A DNA stretch of 26,157 nt from a virus. Lineage: Duplodnaviria > Caudoviricetes. A program made the translations under genes and the position numbers. Shown piece by piece: positions 2,185 through 13,966 of the stretch (within the stretch, counting starts at the first letter, position 1; each line of letters begins with the position of its first letter). The notes under the pieces were generated by a model. It was not told the DNA's origin and searched no databases. It was given only the letters and a program-made list of their open reading frames with translations. Location of the stretch: the IMG/VR virus record IMGVR_UViG_3300027828_000090, positions 1-26,157 of that record; one strand, 5' to 3'.

Positions 2185-2609
2185 GAAAAGCGCGGAGTCA
2201 GTTCGGGCTTGAGGCGCAGGAGTATTTCGACAGGATGCGAATACTCGACCTTGAGCATGGTTATTCAAAGATAAGCCCCGCAGCACCTCCGTGGGCGAGG
2301 GAGCAGCACTCAAGCAATGAACCAGAGCCGCCTGGGAATCATCGGTATCATCGGGTGCTGACCAAAGGACTGAACAGCAGACAACTGCACATTCATCGGG
2401 GATTTGTGGCATTGCCTGACACGGAAAAGGCTATTTTGTGGCTTCAGTTCGGTTACTGGCCTGAAAATGGAAAGACCGCAACAAACAGCCAAAGGGCGAA
2501 ACTGGCAGGGATGTCGGTTGGTTCGTATCGCAGCAAAGTGCAGACTGCTAAGGGACGTTGGCGGGAATCCATTAAGCGTGTCAGAGCGTGTCAATTTGTG
2601 ACAGCTTAA
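2181..2609 (+). CDS. late transcription regulator (Q antiterminator-like / sigma region-4-like HTH)
   Basis: GGAGG SD; LPDTEKAILWLQF...NSQRAKLAGMSVGSYRSKVQTAK HTH-like C-terminus; last gene before an intergenic promoter/terminator and the late operon. Confidence 0.7.
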   Translation: MRKARSQFGLEAQEYFDRMRILDLEHGYSKISPAAPPWAREQHSSNEPEPPGNHRYHRVLTKGLNSRQLHIHRGFVALPDTEKAILWLQFGYWPENGKTATNSQRAKLAGMSVGSYRSKVQTAKGRWRESIKRVRACQFVTA

Positions 2610-2633
2610 CTGGGGTTAATGTGAGACTATAAA
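2606..2633 (+). promoter_or_regulatory. candidate late promoter (pR'-like)
   Basis: TTAACT (2606-2611), 16-nt spacer, TATAAA (2628-2633), directly after the Q-like gene and just upstream of a terminator. Confidence 0.4.
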
Positions 2634-2655
2634 AGTAAGATGGAAACACTTTTGC

Positions 2656-2682
2656 AAGCTGCGCTCCGGTGCGGCTTTTTTT
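2656..2682 (+). terminator. intrinsic terminator (tR'-like)
   Basis: aagctgcgc-tccg-gtgcggctt hairpin running into a T7 tract. Confidence 0.8.
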
Positions 2683-2814
2683 ATGTCTGACTCAGACGAG
2701 CAGGGCAAAGATCGCCGCAGGGAAGTTGAGCGGTTGAGGGCGCAGGGTTATTCGCCCGAAGAGATTGCCGCCTTATTGTCTGAGGATAAGTGGGACGGTT
2801 ACTCATCACACTGA
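2683..2814 (+). CDS. 43-aa small protein, HTH-like (not in ORF track)
   Basis: MSDSDEQGKDRRREVERLRAQGYSPEEIAALLSEDKWDGYSSH*; no clear SD. Confidence 0.45.
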   Translation: MSDSDEQGKDRRREVERLRAQGYSPEEIAALLSEDKWDGYSSH

Positions 2815-2892
2815 GCGAGAGGGCATCAGTTCGGGCGGGGCTTCACCCTATACCCTCTCTCCCTCTCGCGGGGTGAATGTCCCTGCCTTTTT
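2815..2892 (+). other. structured intergenic RNA element (hairpin + T tract with competing/pseudoknot pairing)
   Basis: gcgagaggg 2815-2823 is the reverse complement of ccctctcgc 2861-2869; 2834-2848 pairs with 2871-2887; followed by T5. Confidence 0.5.
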
Positions 2893-2908
2893 AACTTTGG
2901 GGGTTGCA

Positions 2909-3046
2909 ATGGATTGGATTAAAGCGAAATACGCACGGGCGCAGGTCTGGTATGACGAAACCCGGCTGAACTTTGACCGCACCAGTTACGTTCTAGGTGC
3001 TGTGAGTGCCGTGGTTGTGATTGCCCTGCTGAGTTCCATTGGTTGA
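2909..3046 (+). CDS. 45-aa single-pass membrane protein
   Basis: ATG 2909 preceded by GGGGG; hydrophobic C-terminus YVLGAVSAVVVIALLSSIG. Confidence 0.65.
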   Translation: MDWIKAKYARAQVWYDETRLNFDRTSYVLGAVSAVVVIALLSSIG

Positions 3047-3193
3047 TTGCAAACCATCCCACTCACAATAGCCACTCTCTGCTATGTCTGGACTGCATTG
3101 GTCTTGATTGCAAAGGGTGATTACCCGCTAGGGATGACGTTTAGCTTTTACGCATTGGCGAATATCGGCCTGATGTGGGCCACATGGCATTAG
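3047..3193 (+). CDS. 48-aa two-helix membrane protein (not in ORF track)
   Basis: TTG directly after the previous stop: MQTIPLTIATLCYVWTALVLIAKGDYPLGMTFSFYALANIGLMWATWH*; fills the gap exactly. Confidence 0.6.
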   Translation: MQTIPLTIATLCYVWTALVLIAKGDYPLGMTFSFYALANIGLMWATWH

Positions 3194-3546
3194 CGGCAAA
3201 GAAGATATGCAGCCACCCCGGTTGTGGTGTCCTGACCAATAACAGCCGATGCAGCAAGCACGACAAGCCCAAATTCAGACGCGCACCGGATAGACGGGGA
3301 AGCGCGGCAAGTCGGGGCTATGACAGCAAATGGCAGTCGTTAAGACGCAGTTTCATCATGCACCACCCTCTCTGTAAGCACTGCGAGGAAGAGGGGCGGG
3401 TGACTCCGGCGCAGGACGTTGACCATATACAGCGATTCAACGGCATAAATGACCCGTTAAGGCTGGACTGGAACAACCTGCAAAGTCTGTGCAGAAAATG
3501 TCATAACCGCAAGACAGTGAGAGAGAATGTACGACCGGGAAGTTGA
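3184..3546 (+). CDS. terminase-associated HNH endonuclease (HK97 gp74-like)
   Basis: CSHPGC...RCSKH N-terminus, RGYDSKW, HPLCKHC, VDHI...NNLQSLCRKCHNRKT. Confidence 0.9.
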   Translation: MALAAKKICSHPGCGVLTNNSRCSKHDKPKFRRAPDRRGSAASRGYDSKWQSLRRSFIMHHPLCKHCEEEGRVTPAQDVDHIQRFNGINDPLRLDWNNLQSLCRKCHNRKTVRENVRPGS

Positions 3547-4048
3547 AAAGGCTCGTTATATCGAGTGTTACAAGTCACCGACATATCACTGCAAGCCTAA
3601 GCGCAGAAAGCCCACCTTCGACCTGATGAACAGGGCGGAGGGTGAGAGTTGGCTGGATGTGGGTTGCGGTCGCGGTGAGGTGTTAGATCAGGCCGAGCGT
3701 CTGGGTTTCCGTGCGTTAGGCATTGAGACTGTCCCCGCCCTGATTGACGGAAAGCGGGTATTTGAGGGCGATGCTTGTGCGTTGCCTTTCTCTGATGCGG
3801 GCTTTGATGTTGTTTCCTGCTTTGATGTGCTTGAACACCTTGTGCCGGGTGATGAAGTAACCGCCCTGAAAGAGTTTAAGCGTTTGGCAACTAGGTTTGT
3901 CCTGCTGAGTGCGGATAACAAGAAACAACCTCTGCACATCAATATCAAGACTTATCCAGAGTGGGATGAACTCATCCGGTCGGTATTCCCATCAGCGGAG
4001 TGGGTGAAGCACGACCCGCACCCTCAGTTCTGGATAGCTGAAGTGTGA
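3527..4048 (+). CDS. class I SAM-dependent (non-DNA) methyltransferase
   Basis: WLDVGCGRG motif I; GDACALPFSDAGFDVVSCFDVLEH. Confidence 0.88.
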   Translation: MYDREVEKARYIECYKSPTYHCKPKRRKPTFDLMNRAEGESWLDVGCGRGEVLDQAERLGFRALGIETVPALIDGKRVFEGDACALPFSDAGFDVVSCFDVLEHLVPGDEVTALKEFKRLATRFVLLSADNKKQPLHINIKTYPEWDELIRSVFPSAEWVKHDPHPQFWIAEV

Positions 4049-4833
4049 AGGTCTGCATTTACACCCGCAGTCATGCACCTCATCAGGATCAGTTTCATGG
4101 TGCATTCGGTGAAGGGTTAAGGGCGCACGGCATACAACCAGAGCATCTGATTACAGGCCAATGGAAGGAGTCGGATGTTGCGGTTGTGTGGGGTGAGCGG
4201 AATCGGCAAAGCGCGGAAAAGTTTGCCAGAAATGTATTGATATTAGAGCGCGGATATTACCGTGACCGCTTCACCTTCACCTCTGCTGCTTGGAATGGAC
4301 TGAACGGCAGGGGTGAATTTTGCAATGCTGATAGCCCGTCAGACAGATGGGAAAAGCATGGAGTCCCTGTAAAGGATTGGAAGCAGGGTGGTGAATACAT
4401 CCTGTTACTGGGGCAAGTCCCCGGAGATTATAGCCATAGACACACAGACATTAACGGATTCTATCTTGAGGCTCTTGCTCAGTTGGGTGGGGGCGCTCTT
4501 CCTGTTGTGTTTCGTCCTCACCCTCTTAGTCGTGGGGGCAATCCGGGCTGCATGGTGGATGCCAGTGCGACTTTGGAACAAGCACTGTCTAAAGCCGCAT
4601 ACGCAGTAACTTTCAACAGTAACAGCGCGGTTGATGCGGTGCTTGATGGAGTGCCGTGCATAACGATGGATGAGGGTTCGATGGCTTGGGATGTAACAGG
4701 TCACGAATGGGAACAACCACCAACACCTGACCGGACGCAGTGGCTGCATGACTTGGCTTATTGCCAGTGGTCAGAAGATGAAATGAGAGAGGGCATAGCA
4801 TGGCAACACTTGAAGAAAGGGTTGAACGCTTAG
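4045..4833 (+). CDS. GT-B-type glycosyltransferase-like protein (capsule biosynthesis KpsC/KpsS-like motifs)
   Basis: ILERGY, LLGQVPGD, VFRPHP and VTFNSNSAVDAVLDGVP correspond to the QxxxD, HP and TxNS...A..G.P motifs of capsule beta-Kdo transferase-like proteins. Confidence 0.7.
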   Translation: MKVCIYTRSHAPHQDQFHGAFGEGLRAHGIQPEHLITGQWKESDVAVVWGERNRQSAEKFARNVLILERGYYRDRFTFTSAAWNGLNGRGEFCNADSPSDRWEKHGVPVKDWKQGGEYILLLGQVPGDYSHRHTDINGFYLEALAQLGGGALPVVFRPHPLSRGGNPGCMVDASATLEQALSKAAYAVTFNSNSAVDAVLDGVPCITMDEGSMAWDVTGHEWEQPPTPDRTQWLHDLAYCQWSEDEMREGIAWQHLKKGLNA

Positions 4834-4976
4834 AGCGTAGAGATTCACGCAATCGGCGCATGATTCGCCGGATAGCTAAGGCGTTATACATGGCGGCAGA
4901 GAATGGCTTACTGCCTAACACCTGTCGGGCATTGTTTAAGGCTGAGTATGACGAGGCAGAACGTGCCGATTTATGA
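4800..4976 (+). CDS. 58-aa coiled-coil protein (not in ORF track)
   Basis: GAGAGAGGG SD; MATLEERVERLERRDSRNRRMIRRIAKALYMAAENGLLPNTCRALFKAEYDEAERADL*. Confidence 0.65.
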   Translation: MATLEERVERLERRDSRNRRMIRRIAKALYMAAENGLLPNTCRALFKAEYDEAERADL

Positions 4977-5145
4977 ATACAGATGTGAGGACTGCAATCA
5001 CGTTCACGCATACCTCGCTCATGTAGATAACAGAGAGACAGACCGCATCTGTCCAGAGTGTCAGGGCGTTGCGAGGTTCAAGCTGTCAGCAACAAAGACC
5101 ACGTTCAAGGAAGCGGATAAGAGCGGGATAAAGAAAGGCGAGTGA
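4963..5145 (+). CDS. FmdB-family zinc-ribbon protein
   Basis: GTG start with GAGG SD gives MPIYEYRCEDCNH...ICPECQG, the CxxC_CxxC FmdB signature. Confidence 0.8.
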   Translation: MPIYEYRCEDCNHVHAYLAHVDNRETDRICPECQGVARFKLSATKTTFKEADKSGIKKGE

Positions 5146-5807
5146 GATTCTGTAAGAACTGTGGACAGGAGTTCACACCAAAAGAAGCAGACCGAAAGAC
5201 CTTCTGTGGCAGAGGCTGCTCTTACGAGTACCTTGCCAAGCACGGCAGGCCAGAGCGGAGAAAGCCGCCGCTGGTCAGCATTCTCAAGCGTTCATGTAGG
5301 CAGTGTGGCAAACGGTTCACAGCGGTACGCAATGCGGTCTACTGCTCTGATGAATGCAGGGCAGAGCGCAACAGAGAGCGAGGCAAGCGGCAGGACAGAA
5401 CAAAGACCTGCGATGTGTGTGCCAAGACATACACGGTTGCACCTGATGAGTATATGACTGCCTTCTGCTCAGACGAGTGTAGGCAGAGTCGTGAGCGTGA
5501 GCAGAGGTCTGCTGGTAAGGCAAGGCGCAGGGCAAGAGAGCGCACCACTCAGACAGAGACAGTCTCATGGCTAACTATTGCAGGGCGTGATGGTTATGCC
5601 TGTAACGCTTGTGGATGCGACACACCGAAAGCATTGCGCGGCACACACTATGACAACGCGCCTGAGTTAGATCATGTGGTTGCTCTGGCTCAAGGCGGCA
5701 CACATACAGCGGACAACTTGCAGATACTTTGTCGATTGTGCAATCAGATGAAGTCAGACAAGCCAATGGCAGAGTTCATGCGGGAAATGGGACTACATAC
5801 CCCCTAA
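5142..5807 (+). CDS. HNH endonuclease with three N-terminal CxxC...CxxxC zinc-finger repeats
   Basis: CKNC..FCGRGC, CRQC..YCSDEC, CDVC..FCSDEC; C-terminal CNACG...ELDHVVALAQGGTHTADNLQILCRLCNQMK. Confidence 0.85.
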   Translation: MRFCKNCGQEFTPKEADRKTFCGRGCSYEYLAKHGRPERRKPPLVSILKRSCRQCGKRFTAVRNAVYCSDECRAERNRERGKRQDRTKTCDVCAKTYTVAPDEYMTAFCSDECRQSREREQRSAGKARRRARERTTQTETVSWLTIAGRDGYACNACGCDTPKALRGTHYDNAPELDHVVALAQGGTHTADNLQILCRLCNQMKSDKPMAEFMREMGLHTP

Positions 5808-5841
5808 CCCCAATCCATCTCTAGAGCATATGGTTTTCCAA

Positions 5842-5857
5842 GACCGAGCCGCCAGTC
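5842..5857. promoter_or_regulatory. candidate cos (cohesive end) site
   Basis: In the non-coding gap before terS: GAC-[CGAGCCGCCA]-GTC, a 10-nt GC-rich core flanked by an inverted trinucleotide. This is the expected position for HNH/P27-terS 3'-overhang phages. Confidence 0.45.
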
Positions 5858-5897
5858 AATTTTACGTCACCGCAGAATTTAGCTTAGGGGGTTCGCA

Positions 5898-6350
5898 ATG
5901 GGTAGAACCGCATCGCCAACCAGTTTGAAGATTATCAAAGGCAATCCGGGTAAGAGGGCATTGCCTCAGAACGAGCCAGAGCCAGCACCGATCAGCGCAG
6001 ACACGCCCGCTCCGAAAGAGATTGAGGGGATGCCGGATGCGTGTTGGGCTTGGTCGGACATCCTGCCCCGGCTCTGCAATATGCAGGTAATGACCGAGGC
6101 CGACATTCCGATGCTGGTCATGTACTGCGAAGCGTATGCGGATGAGAAGAGCGCAGTCGCTCAGATGGGTGAGACTGGCGCGGTTCAGGTTGCTGCGTCA
6201 GGCCATGCACAAGTCAGTGCGTGGTACACAGTTCGGAAGGATGCCCGTGCATTGCGCTTGAAAATTTTGGGTCTGTTCGGGTTAAGCCCGTCAGACCGCA
6301 CAAAGGTGCAGAAGATTGCTGCACCGAAGAAGGCGAACAAGTTTGATTGA
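5898..6350 (+). CDS. terS: terminase small subunit (P27 family)
   Basis: MGR..PTSLKIIKGNPGKRAL N-terminus; FGLSPSDR C-terminal motif. Confidence 0.92.
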   Translation: MGRTASPTSLKIIKGNPGKRALPQNEPEPAPISADTPAPKEIEGMPDACWAWSDILPRLCNMQVMTEADIPMLVMYCEAYADEKSAVAQMGETGAVQVAASGHAQVSAWYTVRKDARALRLKILGLFGLSPSDRTKVQKIAAPKKANKFD

Positions 6351-6549
6351 ATATTTTGTAAGTCTGATTGTGGTCTGCATCGTTTTCGCGGTGATTAGTT
6401 CGTATGTTCGGACGTTCCTGAGAAAGCGCAGAGACAATCAGCGTGACTTGTACCTTGTGGACACTAAGTGGGGCGTGGTTATTGCCAAGCCTCGCCACTT
6501 TGACCGCTTGAATAGAGCGCATCTGGTCAAGGACTTTGAGACGTTCTAA
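6343..6549 (+). CDS. small membrane-anchored hypothetical protein
   Basis: TTG 6343 overlaps the terS end; hydrophobic N-terminus then RKRR; TAATG coupling to the next gene. Confidence 0.6.
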   Translation: MIEYFVSLIVVCIVFAVISSYVRTFLRKRRDNQRDLYLVDTKWGVVIAKPRHFDRLNRAHLVKDFETF

Positions 6550-7616
6550 TGTCATTCAAGGTAATACAGGGAGATGCGCTGGAAGAGTTGCGCAGGCTTC
6601 CCGATGACAGTGTAGACCTGATATTGACTGACCCACCTTACTTTCGCGTTAAGTCGTTGTGGTGGGATAGACAGTGGGATGATTCTGCCAAGTTTATCGA
6701 GTGGATTGGCGAACTTGCTGACGAGTGGCGGCGCGTATTGCGTCCGAACGGCTCTCTCTATTGTTTCGCATCGCCACAGATGTCGGCGCGAGTAGAAGTG
6801 GAGATTGGCAAGCGGTTCAATGTGCTGAACTGCGTCAGGTGGATAAAGCCGCAAGGAAACCACAAGCGAGCGAGTCCAGATGCTCTGCGCAGGTTTTTGA
6901 CTCCGCACGAGTCCATTATATTCGCGGAACACTACAACGCAGACAATATCGCAATGGGCGGTGCTGGATACGACAAGAAGTGCGACGAGTTGCGCGGCTT
7001 TGTGTTTGAACCGCTTCGGGCTTATTTGGACGGGGAGAGAAAACGCGCCGGAATTGGAAAGGCAGAGTGTAATGTAGCCTGTGGCTTTTCCTATTCCGCT
7101 GGAGGCATGGCATCGCGCCACTACTTCAGCCGCTCTCAGTGGTGCTTGCCTACAGAGCAGCATTATAAGTCGCTTCAAGAGCTGTTTAACGAGGGTGCGG
7201 GCGAATACGAATACCTCTCCCGCGAATACGAAGAGCTGCGCCGCGAATACGAAGAGCTGCGCCGCGAATACGAAGAGCTGCGCCGCGAATACGAAGAGCT
7301 GCGCCGCCCTTTTGCGGTAACAGCGCAGACAGGCTGCGAGGACACTTGGGATATTCGCCCGGTTAATGGCTATAAGGGGAAACACCCCTGTGAGAAGCCG
7401 CAGGAACTTCTGCGCAAGATAATAGCTGCAAGCAGCCGTGAGGGGGCTGTTGTGCTGGACTGCTTCACGGGCAGTGGCTCGACAGGTGAGGCAGCGTTAG
7501 CACTAGGCCGCGAGTTCATTGGAATAGAGATAGATGATAAGTGGGTAAACGCAGCCCGTCAGAGGATTGAATCAGCGGAGCGATACGAGTCGGCACAGAT
7601 TCCGCTAGCAGTTTAA
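6549..7616 (+). CDS. DNA amino-methyltransferase (beta type) with inserted helical domain and heptad repeat
   Basis: ILTDPPY, HPCEKP, VLDCFTGSGSTG, GREFIGIE; (REYEELR)x4 insertion. Confidence 0.93.
   Translation: MSFKVIQGDALEELRRLPDDSVDLILTDPPYFRVKSLWWDRQWDDSAKFIEWIGELADEWRRVLRPNGSLYCFASPQMSARVEVEIGKRFNVLNCVRWIKPQGNHKRASPDALRRFLTPHESIIFAEHYNADNIAMGGAGYDKKCDELRGFVFEPLRAYLDGERKRAGIGKAECNVACGFSYSAGGMASRHYFSRSQWCLPTEQHYKSLQELFNEGAGEYEYLSREYEELRREYEELRREYEELRREYEELRRPFAVTAQTGCEDTWDIRPVNGYKGKHPCEKPQELLRKIIAASSREGAVVLDCFTGSGSTGEAALALGREFIGIEIDDKWVNAARQRIESAERYESAQIPLAV
7221..7304 (+). repeat. 21-bp tandem repeat x4 (in-frame VNTR)
   Basis: cgcgaatacgaagagctgcgc, four perfect copies, plus a degenerate copy at 7200-7220. 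Confidence 0.98.
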
Positions 7617-7696
7617 GGGGGTGAATGGGTTTGACGGTGCGTAAAGCCTAACGGGAAGCGCAACGGACGGCAGTTCAATTCTGCCCACCTCCACCA
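7617..7696 (+). ncRNA. tmRNA-like RNA consisting only of the tRNA-like domain (mini-tmRNA)
   Basis: Acceptor stem GGGGGTG/CACCTCC with G3:U70, discriminator A and encoded CCA; T arm GGCAG-TTCAATT-CTGCC; unpaired D-loop AATGGGTTTGAC; P2-like helix CGGTGCGT/GCGCAACG; GGAC linker. No tag ORF. Confidence 0.85.
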
Positions 7697-7698
7697 CC

Positions 7699-9402
7699 AT
7701 GAAAGATTATGAAGGCATCGCGCTGCAATATGCGCGAGATGTGATTGCGGGTGACATTCCTGCTTGCAAGTGGGTTAAGGACGCAGCACAGAGACAACTA
7801 GACGATCTTGAGAAGTACGCAGACGGGGAGACCTATCTGTGGAATCCCGTCATTTTTAAGCGGGGCAAAGAGGTTCGTCCCGTTGATGACGTTTGCAAGT
7901 TCCTTGAGAACCTACCCCACATCAAGGGGCAATGGGCGGGAACTGATTTAACGCTTGAACCGTGGCAGATATTTGTCGTGTCTTGTGTGTTCGGGTGGAT
8001 TACCCCGGACGGTGTGCGGCGGTTCAGGACTGCTTACCTTGAAGTGCCGAGGAAGAACGGCAAGACCTTCGTTATTTCGGGCATCGGGCTTTACCTGCTC
8101 TGTGCTGATGACGAGGCGGGTGCAGAGGTTTACTCCGCTGCGGTTAAGAAAGACCAAGCCAAAATCAGTTGGGACACTGCCCGGAGGCAGGTTCTAAAGA
8201 CTCCCGACCTTCAGGAAGCATTCGGCGTTGAGGCACTGAAGCACTCGATCTTCATTGAAGATAACGCTTCGATGTTTCAACCACTGGCCTCTGATTCGGA
8301 CTCACTTGACGGTCTGAACATACACGGTGGCTTGATTGATGAACTCCACGCGCACAAGTCGCGTGAGGTGTTCGATGTCATTGAGACTGGTACTGGCTCT
8401 CGCAGTCAGTCGCTCATGTTCATCATCACCACTGCCGGGTCTAATCAGGCGGGCATCTGTTACGAGCAGCGCGGGTATGTGACGAAGCTGCTCGATGGTG
8501 TGGTGGAGGATGAGGCTTATTGGGGCATTGTCTACACGTTAGACGATGACGACATAGAGCAGGTCTGGACGAACCCGGAACTGCTTGAGAAAGCCAATCC
8601 GAATTACGGCATTTCTGTCCTGCCTTTCGACATTGAAAGACTCTGGACGAAGGCGAAACAGACTCCATCCGCTCAAAACAACTTCCTCACGAAGCGGGCG
8701 AATGTTTGGGTGAATGCCGATACCGCATGGATGCAGATGCACCGATGGGACAAAGGGCATAACGGTGCTTTGTCGCTTGAGGATTTCAAGGGTAAGCCCT
8801 GCATTATCGGCGCTGACTTTGCCTCAAAGGTGGACATTGCGGCGCTTTGTTTACTGTTTGAAGAGGGCGGGGAGTTATATCCCTTCCTGAAATACTACCT
8901 GCCGGATGAAACGGTGCGGAACTCGTCTAACGACCTTTATGCGGGGTGGTGGCGCGAGGGGCGCTTAACCGTAACGCCGGGACAGGTGATTGACTTCGAT
9001 TTCATTGAGCAGGACTGCGAACAGTTCGCCTCTGATTTTGAAATTAAAGAATTTGCGTATGACCCGCATCAGGCGACCCAGTTTGCGGGCCGGATGATTA
9101 ACAACGGATTCAACATGGTCGAGGTTCGCCCGACTGTTTTGAACTTCTCCGAGCCGATGAAAGAGCTTGAGGCGCGGGTTTTAGCCGGAAAACTCCACCA
9201 CAACGACCCCATTTTGAAGTGGATGGTCAGCAATGTGGTTGGTCACTATGACGCAAAAGACAACATTTACCCGCGCAAAGAGCGACCAGAGAACAAGATT
9301 GATGGGGTTATTGCTCTGCTTTCTGCGCTCAATCGCCTTATGAACCCCGGCGAAGATGAAACAAGTATTTATGAGAAGCGTGGATTGAGAGTTATTGACT
9401 GA
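7699..9402 (+). CDS. terL: terminase large subunit
   Basis: LEPWQ, Walker A VPRKNGKT, Walker B LIDELH, ITTAG coupling motif, nuclease GADFA...KIDGVIA. Confidence 0.97.
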   Translation: MKDYEGIALQYARDVIAGDIPACKWVKDAAQRQLDDLEKYADGETYLWNPVIFKRGKEVRPVDDVCKFLENLPHIKGQWAGTDLTLEPWQIFVVSCVFGWITPDGVRRFRTAYLEVPRKNGKTFVISGIGLYLLCADDEAGAEVYSAAVKKDQAKISWDTARRQVLKTPDLQEAFGVEALKHSIFIEDNASMFQPLASDSDSLDGLNIHGGLIDELHAHKSREVFDVIETGTGSRSQSLMFIITTAGSNQAGICYEQRGYVTKLLDGVVEDEAYWGIVYTLDDDDIEQVWTNPELLEKANPNYGISVLPFDIERLWTKAKQTPSAQNNFLTKRANVWVNADTAWMQMHRWDKGHNGALSLEDFKGKPCIIGADFASKVDIAALCLLFEEGGELYPFLKYYLPDETVRNSSNDLYAGWWREGRLTVTPGQVIDFDFIEQDCEQFASDFEIKEFAYDPHQATQFAGRMINNGFNMVEVRPTVLNFSEPMKELEARVLAGKLHHNDPILKWMVSNVVGHYDAKDNIYPRKERPENKIDGVIALLSALNRLMNPGEDETSIYEKRGLRVID

Positions 9403-10826
9403 TGTTTGAATGGTTGAAGCGGAACAAGGCAAAGAATCTCACGCTGAAAAGCCCTGACGGGTGGGGTCAGTTGTTTTCCCGCACAAATGCGGGTGTTTCG
9501 GTGTCTGTAGAACAGGCAATGCGAATTGCGGCGGTTTTCGCTTGCGTGAAGATCATTGCGGAAACGATTGCAAGCACTCCGCTCCACATTTACCGGAACA
9601 GGCCGGAAGGCGGCAAGGATAGAGCGAGTACTCATCCTCTTTCCGTTATTTTCGGTGGTGTCGCTAACGAAGAGAACACATCTCAGGAATTGTTGGAGTA
9701 TGTGCTGGCTTCTCTGCTTCTGCGAGGCGTTTCTTACTGCGAAATCGTAAGAAAAGGCGGCAAAGTTACCGCGTTGATTCCGCTTGATGCCTCTAAGATG
9801 CAACCTGACCGCATGGAAGGCGGCGCACTGGTCTTTAATTACACGGTTGACGGGGTAACAACTACCTATCAGCCGAGCCAATTATGGCGCGTTACGGGGC
9901 TTTCTAGTGATGGCGTGACGGGTTACAGCGCGGTTTCTCAGGGTAAAGAGGCGCTTGGTGTTGCGTTAGCGGCAGAAGAACACGCTGCACGGACGTTCAG
10001 TAACGGCGCAAGCATCCCCGGTGTCTATCAGAAGGACGGGATGCTGTCTGATGAAGCCTTTACCCGTCTGAAAGAACAGCTAGACAGTCGGGCGGACTCG
10101 CTTGGCAGTCTGATGAAGCCACTTCTTTTGGAAGAGGGGCTTACTTACGAGTCTGTTTCAATGACGTTGGAACAGGCGCAATTCGTTGAGGCGCGGAAGT
10201 TCCAGATTGCCGAGGTGTGCAGAATCTTCCGAGTTCCGGCGCACAAGGTCGGGCTTATGGACGCTGCGACCTTCGGCAACATTGAGCACCAATCCCTTGA
10301 GTTCGTGATTGACACGTTGACTCCGTGGTGTGTGCGTATTGAGCAGACGATTCGGCGCGATCTGCTCACCGCCAATGAGAAGCGATTCTTTTATGCCAAG
10401 TTCAACTTAGAAGGACTGCTGCGCGGTGACGTTAAGACCCGTTATGAGGCGCACAGTTCCGCTCTTAATAACGGTTGGATGTGTGCCAATGAGGTACGCG
10501 CACTTGAGGACTTGAATCCGATTGAGGGCGGTGACGTTTACCGCATCCCGTTGAACATGGGGCAGGTCGGTGACGAGCCGGAAAAAGACCCCGAAGAGAA
10601 TCCCGTCACTGCTTTGGAGATGCGTCAGGTCAATGCGATTCGGCGTGAGGTTGGGCGCGGTGACTTCAGCGAGTGGGCAACAGATTTTTATGACCGTCTC
10701 GCCGTTTCTATAACTGGCGATGACTGTGACGAGGACACTGCGAAGGCGTATTGCGCGAAGCAGTTGAAAGAACTACTGGCGGCAGACGATGTTCCCGCCT
10801 TGCTGACTAAATGGGAAGGCAAATGA
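9402..10826 (+). CDS. HK97-family portal protein
   Basis: AVFACVKIIAETIASTPL, FSNGA.PG, EVCRIFRVP, NEVRALEDLNPIEGGD. Confidence 0.96.
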   Translation: MFEWLKRNKAKNLTLKSPDGWGQLFSRTNAGVSVSVEQAMRIAAVFACVKIIAETIASTPLHIYRNRPEGGKDRASTHPLSVIFGGVANEENTSQELLEYVLASLLLRGVSYCEIVRKGGKVTALIPLDASKMQPDRMEGGALVFNYTVDGVTTTYQPSQLWRVTGLSSDGVTGYSAVSQGKEALGVALAAEEHAARTFSNGASIPGVYQKDGMLSDEAFTRLKEQLDSRADSLGSLMKPLLLEEGLTYESVSMTLEQAQFVEARKFQIAEVCRIFRVPAHKVGLMDAATFGNIEHQSLEFVIDTLTPWCVRIEQTIRRDLLTANEKRFFYAKFNLEGLLRGDVKTRYEAHSSALNNGWMCANEVRALEDLNPIEGGDVYRIPLNMGQVGDEPEKDPEENPVTALEMRQVNAIRREVGRGDFSEWATDFYDRLAVSITGDDCDEDTAKAYCAKQLKELLAADDVPALLTKWEGK

Positions 10827-12824: not shown

Positions 12825-13403
12825 ATGGGAATTGAATCAACAAACGCTTCAGAGGTCATCACTCTGGCAGAGGCTAAGGCTCACTTGCGTATTCCTGGCG
12901 GGGTTACGGATGATGATGCTTACATTTCAAGCCTGATAACTGCTGCGCGTGAGTATGCCGAGGGGTATACCAAAAGAAGTATAGGTACTCAGACCTGCGT
13001 TTATACGCTTGATTCCTTCCCTTCAGTAATTGACCTGCCCCGTTGTCCGGTGCAGTCGGTTACATCTGTTGAATACATTGACGAGGATGGCGCGACTCAA
13101 AGCGTTGCCTCGTTCCAGACAGACTTAAATGGGTCTGTTACTGCGAAGGTTAAGCCAGCGTATGACGCTTCATGGCCTGACACTCGCGCTGTTTTGGGTG
13201 CTGTGACCGTCACATATCAGGCGGGTTACGGTGCGGCAGGGGACAGCCCGGACACTGTGCCGCTGTCTATCAAACAAGCCCTGCTCATCTTGGTCGGTTC
13301 GTTCTACGAGAATCGTGAAAATGAGATTGTCGGCGCTGCTGTTTCAGAAGTTCCTTTTTCGGTTAAATGTCTGCTAGACCTCTTCCGTTTAGTCCAAGTT
13401 TAG
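12825..13403 (+). CDS. head-tail adaptor (gp6 / phiE125 gp8-like)
   Basis: ITLAEAKAHLRI, AAREYAE, V.VTYQAGYG, VPLSIKQALLILVGSFYENRE. Confidence 0.92.
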   Translation: MGIESTNASEVITLAEAKAHLRIPGGVTDDDAYISSLITAAREYAEGYTKRSIGTQTCVYTLDSFPSVIDLPRCPVQSVTSVEYIDEDGATQSVASFQTDLNGSVTAKVKPAYDASWPDTRAVLGAVTVTYQAGYGAAGDSPDTVPLSIKQALLILVGSFYENRENEIVGAAVSEVPFSVKCLLDLFRLVQV

Positions 13404-13966
13404 AGGGCAAGACTGCCGTCGTTATCGGCGGCGGCGCGAGTTTAACGAAAGAGGACTGCGATTATGCGCGGGACTCTGATGCGTTCCTGATTGGCGTTAA
13501 TGACGCTTACCGGATGACGCAGCTTGATTGCCTGTATGCCTCAGACCATCCGTGGATTAAATATCACTGGGATGCGCTGAAGGATTACGCGCCTTGTCTG
13601 CTTGTTACGCAGACCCATGTGAACGGGAAACCCTTAGACCTGCCTATGTGGACGGTGGAGGGCAAGCATGGGTGTGATATGTCGGACTCTGTCCTTAATT
13701 TTGGGGGCAATTCGGGCTTTGCAGCGGTGCATCTCGCCTCGCTATGGGGTGCGGCAAGGGTGCTGCTACTGGGGTTCGATATGCGCCTAAATGGGGGCAA
13801 ACGACACTGGTTCGGAGATCACCCCGGCAACATGAACAAAAAGAGCAACTATTTGACATGGGTTGCCAACTTTGAGCGGGCGAACTGTCCGACTCCAATC
13901 ATTAACTGCTCACGGGACACGGCTTTGACCTGTTTCCCGAGAGCGACCATTGAGGAAGTGCTGTGA
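13367..13966 (+). CDS. Maf/MptE-like (sialyltransferase-fold) putative glycosyltransferase
   Basis: AVVIGGGASL, IGVNDAY, LYASD, GGNSGFAAVHLA...GAARVLLLGFDM, HWFGDHP; inserted between neck genes. Confidence 0.68.
   Translation: MSARPLPFSPSLEGKTAVVIGGGASLTKEDCDYARDSDAFLIGVNDAYRMTQLDCLYASDHPWIKYHWDALKDYAPCLLVTQTHVNGKPLDLPMWTVEGKHGCDMSDSVLNFGGNSGFAAVHLASLWGAARVLLLGFDMRLNGGKRHWFGDHPGNMNKKSNYLTWVANFERANCPTPIINCSRDTALTCFPRATIEEVL

Follow-up and report, generated by a model that had tools for sequence, protein, structure and literature searches.

A tagless tmRNA is said to have been reported originally by Mao et al. in 2009, from the mycobacteriophage DS6A. The entry 'Mycobacterium phage DS6A (TLD only)', where TLD denotes the tRNA-like domain, is tabulated in PMC4131195 (Table 2) and recurs in PMC11915505. 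According to these two sources, a DS6A-like molecule strongly inhibits tmRNA in E. coli whether or not it can be charged, perhaps by titrating SmpB. tmRNAs devoid of a coding sequence are also described for jakobid and oomycete mitochondria, together with forms of about 65 nt in Mallomonadaceae plastids (PMC11915505), and in vitro the tRNA-like domain with SmpB yields template-free polyalanine (PMC2481249 and PMC3929946). DS6A is the one phage example of a tagless tmRNA that we found named in the literature, and no description of a wide phage family came to light in the literature on phage tmRNAs and tagless forms, searched mainly at record level; in fact such RNAs are common in uncultured phages and go unrecognised by ARAGORN. 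The first-pass annotation of the locus studied here had been uncertain whether phage-borne TLD-only RNAs were already described. DS6A answers this in the affirmative, and the type itself is therefore not new.

The locus lies within a 26,157-nt stretch of viral DNA (the window), whose virus record is 57% complete. Between the stop codon of a DNA methylase gene (TAA, 7614-7616) and the ATG of the terminase large subunit gene terL at position 7699 there is a gap of 82 nt, which houses an 80-nt element with an encoded CCA on the plus strand (7617..7696). The Infernal-type comparison proposed at first pass gave an end-to-end match of this element to the Rfam tmRNA model RF00023 (model positions 1-374) with 62.9 bits against a gathering cut-off of 47 (E 1.3e-23), the only match above an Rfam cut-off in the whole window. 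The mitochondrial tmRNA model RF02544 was not among the displayed Rfam matches, from which two lower-scoring matches of the same clan were hidden. In the RF00023 alignment, 304 consensus positions are replaced by 11 nt, and a short hairpin stands in place of the message domain, which agrees with the initial reading of the element as a TLD-only tmRNA lacking the mRNA-like domain.

The 5′ strand of the acceptor stem, GGGGGTG (7617..7623, with G3 at 7619), pairs with CACCTCC (7686-7692, with U70 at 7690), giving a G3:U70 pair, and is completed by the discriminator A73 at 7693 and CCA at 7694-7696. A stemless D-loop (7624..7634) ends in TTGA before C7635; in the Rfam alignment it corresponds to the predicted SmpB contact region, the D-loop being in contact with SmpB in tmRNA structures (PMC8363625). 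The T arm GGCAG-TTCAATT-CTGCC (7669..7685) is connected by a GGAC linker (7665-7668) to a P2-like region (7635..7665), whose helix (7635-7642 / 7658-7665), AAAG bulge (7643-7646) and CC-TAAC-GG cap (7647-7654) replace the pseudoknots and tag ORF. Every part that the first-pass annotation had described was confirmed; the P2-like helix, present along with the cap, forms 7/8 pairs and contains one G.A mismatch that had gone unmentioned. The interior between the GAC and GGAC motifs is 29 nt long; pseudoknots and a resume codon are absent from it, as are a tag ORF and its stop codon. The folding energy of the 80-mer is unremarkable (z -1.27; 19/200 shuffles fold equally well), and for several genuine members of the family described below, folding the sequence by itself gives a weak or an incorrect structure.

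The DS6A element was placed at L206:28478-28560, corresponding to JN698994.1 28478-28560, and scores 43.2 bits with RF00023. Both RNAs are about 80 nt long, phage-borne and intergenic, and share G3:U70, A73, a stemless D-loop ending in YGAC, the T arm, a P2 helix with an A-rich bulge and a CC..GG cap, and the lack of a tag ORF. In the family alignment they are 56% identical. They differ in the encoded 3′ end (CCA in the window, CTA in DS6A), in the linker (GGAC versus GGCAC) and in their neighbours, as the window copy abuts terL, whereas that of DS6A has gp33 on one side and a DNA polymerase III gene on the other. Other assignments were considered and rejected. The permuted two-piece tmRNA model RF04321 gives a partial match of 20.8 bits against a cut-off of 47, and the ends of the element are in standard order. 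A tRNA-Ala is contradicted by the missing D stem and anticodon arm, by the stemless D-loop and GGAC linker, and by ARAGORN, which had been suggested as a check at first pass and called 0 genes in the window. A fragment left at an ssrA attachment site should comprise just the 3′ part of ssrA and adjoin an integrase; here both tmRNA ends are present, and no integrase was found among the 27 window ORFs scanned in Pfam (in a record of the completeness given above). Finally, a standard tmRNA would require pseudoknots, tag ORF and stop codon, all of which are missing. On sequence grounds, we conclude that the element is a genuine RNA gene under selection and belongs with the TLD-only tmRNAs of the DS6A type, resembling the tRNA half of tmRNA and falling outside standard tmRNA.

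A strict motif taken from the window's own sequence matched 0 viral stretches, and a loose motif was used instead. It detected at least 120 viral loci in the 20/64 parts scanned, with about 410 stretches estimated. Among the matches listed there are 92 distinct sequences of 61-85 nt, with two main size classes: at 62-65 nt P2 is a simple hairpin, and at 77-80 nt it has the bulge and cap. Pairing was counted from the anchored ends and only at positions unconstrained by the search motif. Acceptor pair 5:68 is formed in 90/92 listed sequences compared with a shuffled mean of 42, T-stem pairs 1-3 in 92, 92 and 91 of the 92 (shuffled 38, 37 and 44), and P2 pairs 1-5 in 90, 88, 84, 87 and 83 (shuffled about 40). 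A family model (R1) was trained on 69 sequences, namely 64 viral ones of 75-82 nt, DS6A, the window element and three relatives, with L009 left out owing to an overlapping ARAGORN call; it scores the window element, itself part of the training set, at 74.2 bits. In a model-fitted alignment of 88 sequences, which are related and whose fitting is biased toward structure, 96.1% of cells pair compared with at most 54.8% in slid controls, and both partners vary at 17/22 pairs. The D-loop GG and T19, left free in the motif, are kept in this alignment in 84, 78 and 88 of 88 sequences. The CC/GG pairs of the cap show sequence conservation more than covariation, and the measure of further pair types did not rise above shuffles (63 of 500). 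When the MAFFT alignment A1, in which the 5′ ends of some rows are off by one column, was folded with RNAalifold, just the T arm and an incorrect short stem were obtained. With phage homologues thus gathered and their pairing far above shuffled controls at motif-free positions, covariation and the close relatives described below uphold the original proposal that this is a selected RNA and not an ssrA remnant or attachment scar.

ARAGORN, applied to 80 viral loci, recognised none as TLD-only; it labelled one of them tRNA-Leu and three of them long tmRNAs. When the 80-mer was compared by BLAST with 50,697 records of cultured phages, short T-arm matches alone were obtained, none covering 80% of the query. 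The Streptomyces phages BRock and GiJojo carry unannotated copies in their tRNA regions, near RNA ligase genes, that score 70.7 and 73.8 bits and lie outside the training set; their presence in culturable phages makes the role of a message-less tmRNA testable. The GiJojo RNA (L208:2991-3068) lies beneath gene 44, which is annotated as encoding a hypothetical protein and may have been called in error. Four of the 80 viral loci are inside tRNA arrays (L004, L032, L063 and L073). A PHROGs scan of 79/122 nearest ORFs from 52 loci gave a named neighbour for 16 loci and no integrase; at 10/16 the neighbour is a head, packaging or connector gene, a raw count without a random-position baseline. Further members may be contained in the 97,179-entry tmRNA database (PMC11915505) and the candidate RNA tables (PMC10690425).

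The RNA gene sits in a late operon, and the window contains terS, terL, portal, protease, capsid and tape measure genes identified by Pfam and PHROGs. The terminase small subunit (5898..6350, PF05119) belongs to the head/packaging operon of a tailed phage, and is followed by the N6/N4 DNA methylase (6549..7616, PF01555, E 2.6e-42), the RNA gene and, on the plus strand like the others, terL (7699..9402, PF03354 and PF20441), whose closest cultured counterpart, that of Marinobacter phage AS1, is 55.6% identical. A sigma-70 scan of the plus strand from 2500 to 9500 found no promoter, a result of little weight for a late operon. The methylase contains a tandem EELRREY-type repeat mid-protein, and a second N6/N4 methylase lies at 91-780 (Pfam). 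Also among the late genes, at 3527-4833 and 13367-13966, are a SAM methyltransferase, a 262-aa ORF with no match in Pfam or PHROGs and a sialyltransferase-like gene, a set that possibly serves virion or DNA modification.

Close relatives of the locus were located via terL (L121, L122, L128, L132, L134, L135, L123, L129 and L130), and, apart from the degenerate form in the last three, they display an RNA that changes in sequence at constant fold. In L121, L122 and L128 (terL 86%) the 5′ part is as in the window and the T arm is different, 4/5 of its pairs in L121 being altered on both sides. P2 is altered too in L132 and L135, with pairing retained. The flanks of L134 share 96% and 99% identity with those of the window, yet its RNA (L134:1483-1562) is just 67% identical: D-loop, P2, cap and T stem are all new and nevertheless paired, and the T-loop reads GGCAGAG. 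The methylase is missing from L121, L128, L132, L134 and L135, where a 77-aa ORF stops directly on the RNA; as these relatives carry the RNA without it, the methylase is an insert in the window's lineage. A degenerate form with A3:U70, devoid of GGAC and T arm, occupies the site in L123 (506-562), L129 and L130 (terL 77%). In L123 it retains an acceptor-like stem and ACCA, folds into one long hairpin (z -3.0, 506-565) and, like those of L129 and L130, is not detected by R1. It may be a relic or a cis element. A further candidate, L235, proved to be a chance match of the terL-junction motif. Judged by these comparisons, the RNA gene behaves like a cassette: it is accessory, is exchanged at one constant position before terL and can also decay.

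T-loops of the GGCAG-NN subclass, as in L134, were matched at 9 viral loci (L237-L245), of which at least one (L238) is doubtful. The full-length ssrA of a Saccharibacteria MAG (L228) shares this T-loop type, hinting that T-loops may be matched to the host.

In tmRNA, G3:U70 is the determinant for AlaRS (PMC3985003). As this pair was fixed in the loose motif, it was tested by two separate complete scans that allowed single changes at 3:70 only and no double changes. The scan for G3 with any non-U at 70 returned 0 stretches, and that for A3:U70 returned 1, which turned out to be mis-anchored inside a 104-nt form; read from its real start, this form carries G3:U70. This long form (L326:266-369) is directly followed by a tRNA-like sequence. 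Whereas pair 5:68 occurs in all four Watson-Crick forms, the two stem-strengthening changes at 3:70 are absent. The BRock and GiJojo copies, found by BLAST independently of the motif, have pair 4:69 changed and G3:U70 kept. Because G3:U70 is without true exception in the two control scans, alanine charging appears to be under selection, which argues against a simple sponge for SmpB; the invariant identity pair points to ribosomal action beyond SmpB titration alone.

A scan of bacterial genomes yielded 68 loci, of which 26 were judged by eye to be TLD-only and the other 42 to be the 3′ ends of tmRNAs in full-length or two-piece form. Since 8/10 tested genomes carry a full-length ssrA as well, with P2 and T stems that differ by eye from those of the short copy, the RNA is an extra gene. 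Neither SmpB nor an integrase was found among the 90 of 115 neighbour ORFs of the 26 loci that were scanned in Pfam. In Patescibacteria and Saccharibacteria MAGs, TLD-only genes (L144, L157, L159, L169 and L174) each lie near a TrmB-family regulator, L157 additionally near a PIN/MazE-type gene pair, and the four tested all contain a full ssrA; these copies possibly mark a non-phage, stress-regulated locus. TLD-only genes are also located within bacterial arrays of 8-24 tRNAs (L149, L156, L187 and L198, two of them cyanobacterial), L198 lying near an RF-1-domain gene. In an Achromobacter MAG (L173) the sole above-cut-off tmRNA match is an 80-nt form with 91 bits and there is no full ssrA, so that this form probably reflects a host ssrA that was misassembled or has lost its interior by deletion.

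With moderate confidence, we propose that the RNA, once charged, would compete with host tmRNA by accompanying host SmpB into non-stop ribosomes, where it would add alanine and leave no tag. By analogy with tmRNA biology, from which processing, charging, binding and A-site entry are all taken, the RNA would likely be excised from the late transcript by host RNase P together with maturation of the 3′ end. AlaRS is predicted to load it with alanine, and EF-Tu and SmpB would then bind it; as no smpB was found in the window, which belongs to an incomplete record, host SmpB would be the partner. The complex would enter the A site of non-stop ribosomes in competition with host tmRNA and add alanine without a degradation tag, the expected outcome being less SsrA tagging in the late phase, with peptide release by host back-up factors or drop-off. 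Several points weigh against this competitor model. Ribosome entry is not needed for the published inhibition, since this was seen with chargeable and unchargeable RNA, and charging could be selected just for stability or EF-Tu protection. Blocked rescue could harm the phage's own translation, and the tmRNA genes called by ARAGORN in 402/18,146 phages (PMC9004378) suggest that many phages want more rescue, not less. The lineage of L123, L129 and L130, without T arm and with A3:U70, weighs against it as well.

It is possible, though doubtful, that the RNA is instead a tag-free helper of translation, which once charged would free non-stop ribosomes or tail their products with alanine when host tmRNA is limiting or cleaved. 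The members in viral and bacterial tRNA arrays, the copies of BRock and GiJojo near RNA ligases and that of L198 near the RF-1-domain gene would suit such a function, as would the invariance of G3:U70 and the conservation of tagless mitochondrial tmRNAs along with SmpB (PMC11915505). However, the RNA has no stop codon or release signal, the majority of members are found outside tRNA arrays, and the sole reported in vivo test showed inhibition.

That the RNA is a pure SmpB sponge, titrating the protein and destabilizing host tmRNA with no action on the ribosome, we consider unlikely. The same idea has been published for the DS6A-like molecule, effective whether chargeable or not, and it agrees with the motif-free conservation of the D-loop GG and T19. 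It gives no reason, however, for the fixity of G3:U70, which is never replaced by G3:C70 or A3:U70 although 5:68 varies fully. Of the three roles proposed by the first-pass annotation, titration alone fits the invariance of G3:U70 least well, since the published inhibition did not need charging.

The third of those roles, in which the RNA would serve as a decoy for, or replace, the tmRNA or tRNA that host defences detect or cleave, seems very improbable to us. It would account for the rapid sequence turnover at constant fold seen in L134, and defence systems with SmpB-like domains have been predicted (CoCoNuTs, PMC11090510), but the link between CoCoNuTs and tmRNA is itself a prediction there, and nothing relevant was found in the literature on tmRNA, SmpB and anti-phage cleavage.

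Mainly a cis function, in which tRNA-type processing would leave a near-leaderless terL mRNA and so set terminase levels, has still less to recommend it. In its favour, the terL ATG lies 2 nt past the CCA and overlaps no upstream gene, and this distance stays at 2-6 nt in L121, L132 and L134 as well, even for the degenerate form of L123. The gene has no Shine-Dalgarno site: with the anti-Shine-Dalgarno motif, its start gives a duplex of +2.2 kcal/mol, the weakest among 24 starts tested. Yet the family has no fixed neighbour, a same-strand ORF starts at most 10 nt past the CCA in just 3/63 distinct listed viral loci, no copy was found in the flanks retrieved for 78 more distantly related terL loci (35-57% identity), and G3:U70 would be unnecessary for a cis signal. 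Cis processing may be a secondary role within this clade.

A non-functional ssrA remnant, attachment scar or assembly deletion is hardly credible: such deletions are known in MAGs (PMC11915505) and L173 resembles one, but here both ends are present in standard order, the 3′ motif occurs in the window once without mismatch, no integrase is found among the scanned neighbours, and independent contigs carry the element too, with changes that compensate for one another.

One may speculate that a large, unannotated RNA family of phages and tRNA arrays makes host SmpB a tag-free, alanine-tailing rescue machine on the 70S ribosome in vivo, and that the copy in this clade is an exchangeable cassette retuned to the T-loop type of the host and doubling as a processing signal for a near-leaderless terminase mRNA; as a whole, we regard this picture as rather doubtful. 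If the RNA does act on the ribosome, phages would tune host ribosome rescue and protein tagging by an 80-base RNA, which would also bear on the tagless organellar tmRNAs.

Compared with standard bacterial tmRNA (ssrA, RF00023), the complete tRNA-like domain is common to both, whereas ssrA has about 300 nt between GAC and GGAC instead of the 29 nt of the window, and its pseudoknots, resume codon, tag ORF and stop are missing here. The tagless organellar tmRNAs share with the window element a tRNA-like domain without a tag reading frame, but they are the sole tmRNA of their compartment and usually permuted, whereas the phage gene is extra and unpermuted. RqcH/RqcP, which add alanine to a stalled chain without a template (PMC8012679), offer a parallel in the way of working only: RqcH is a protein system that uses tRNA-Ala on split 50S subunits, while here an RNA with SmpB would act on the 70S ribosome. 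The concept of a tagless phage tmRNA is thus known from DS6A; what makes it worth testing is how widespread the family is, that it covaries, that charging appears to be selected and that the gene is exchanged like a cassette next to terL.
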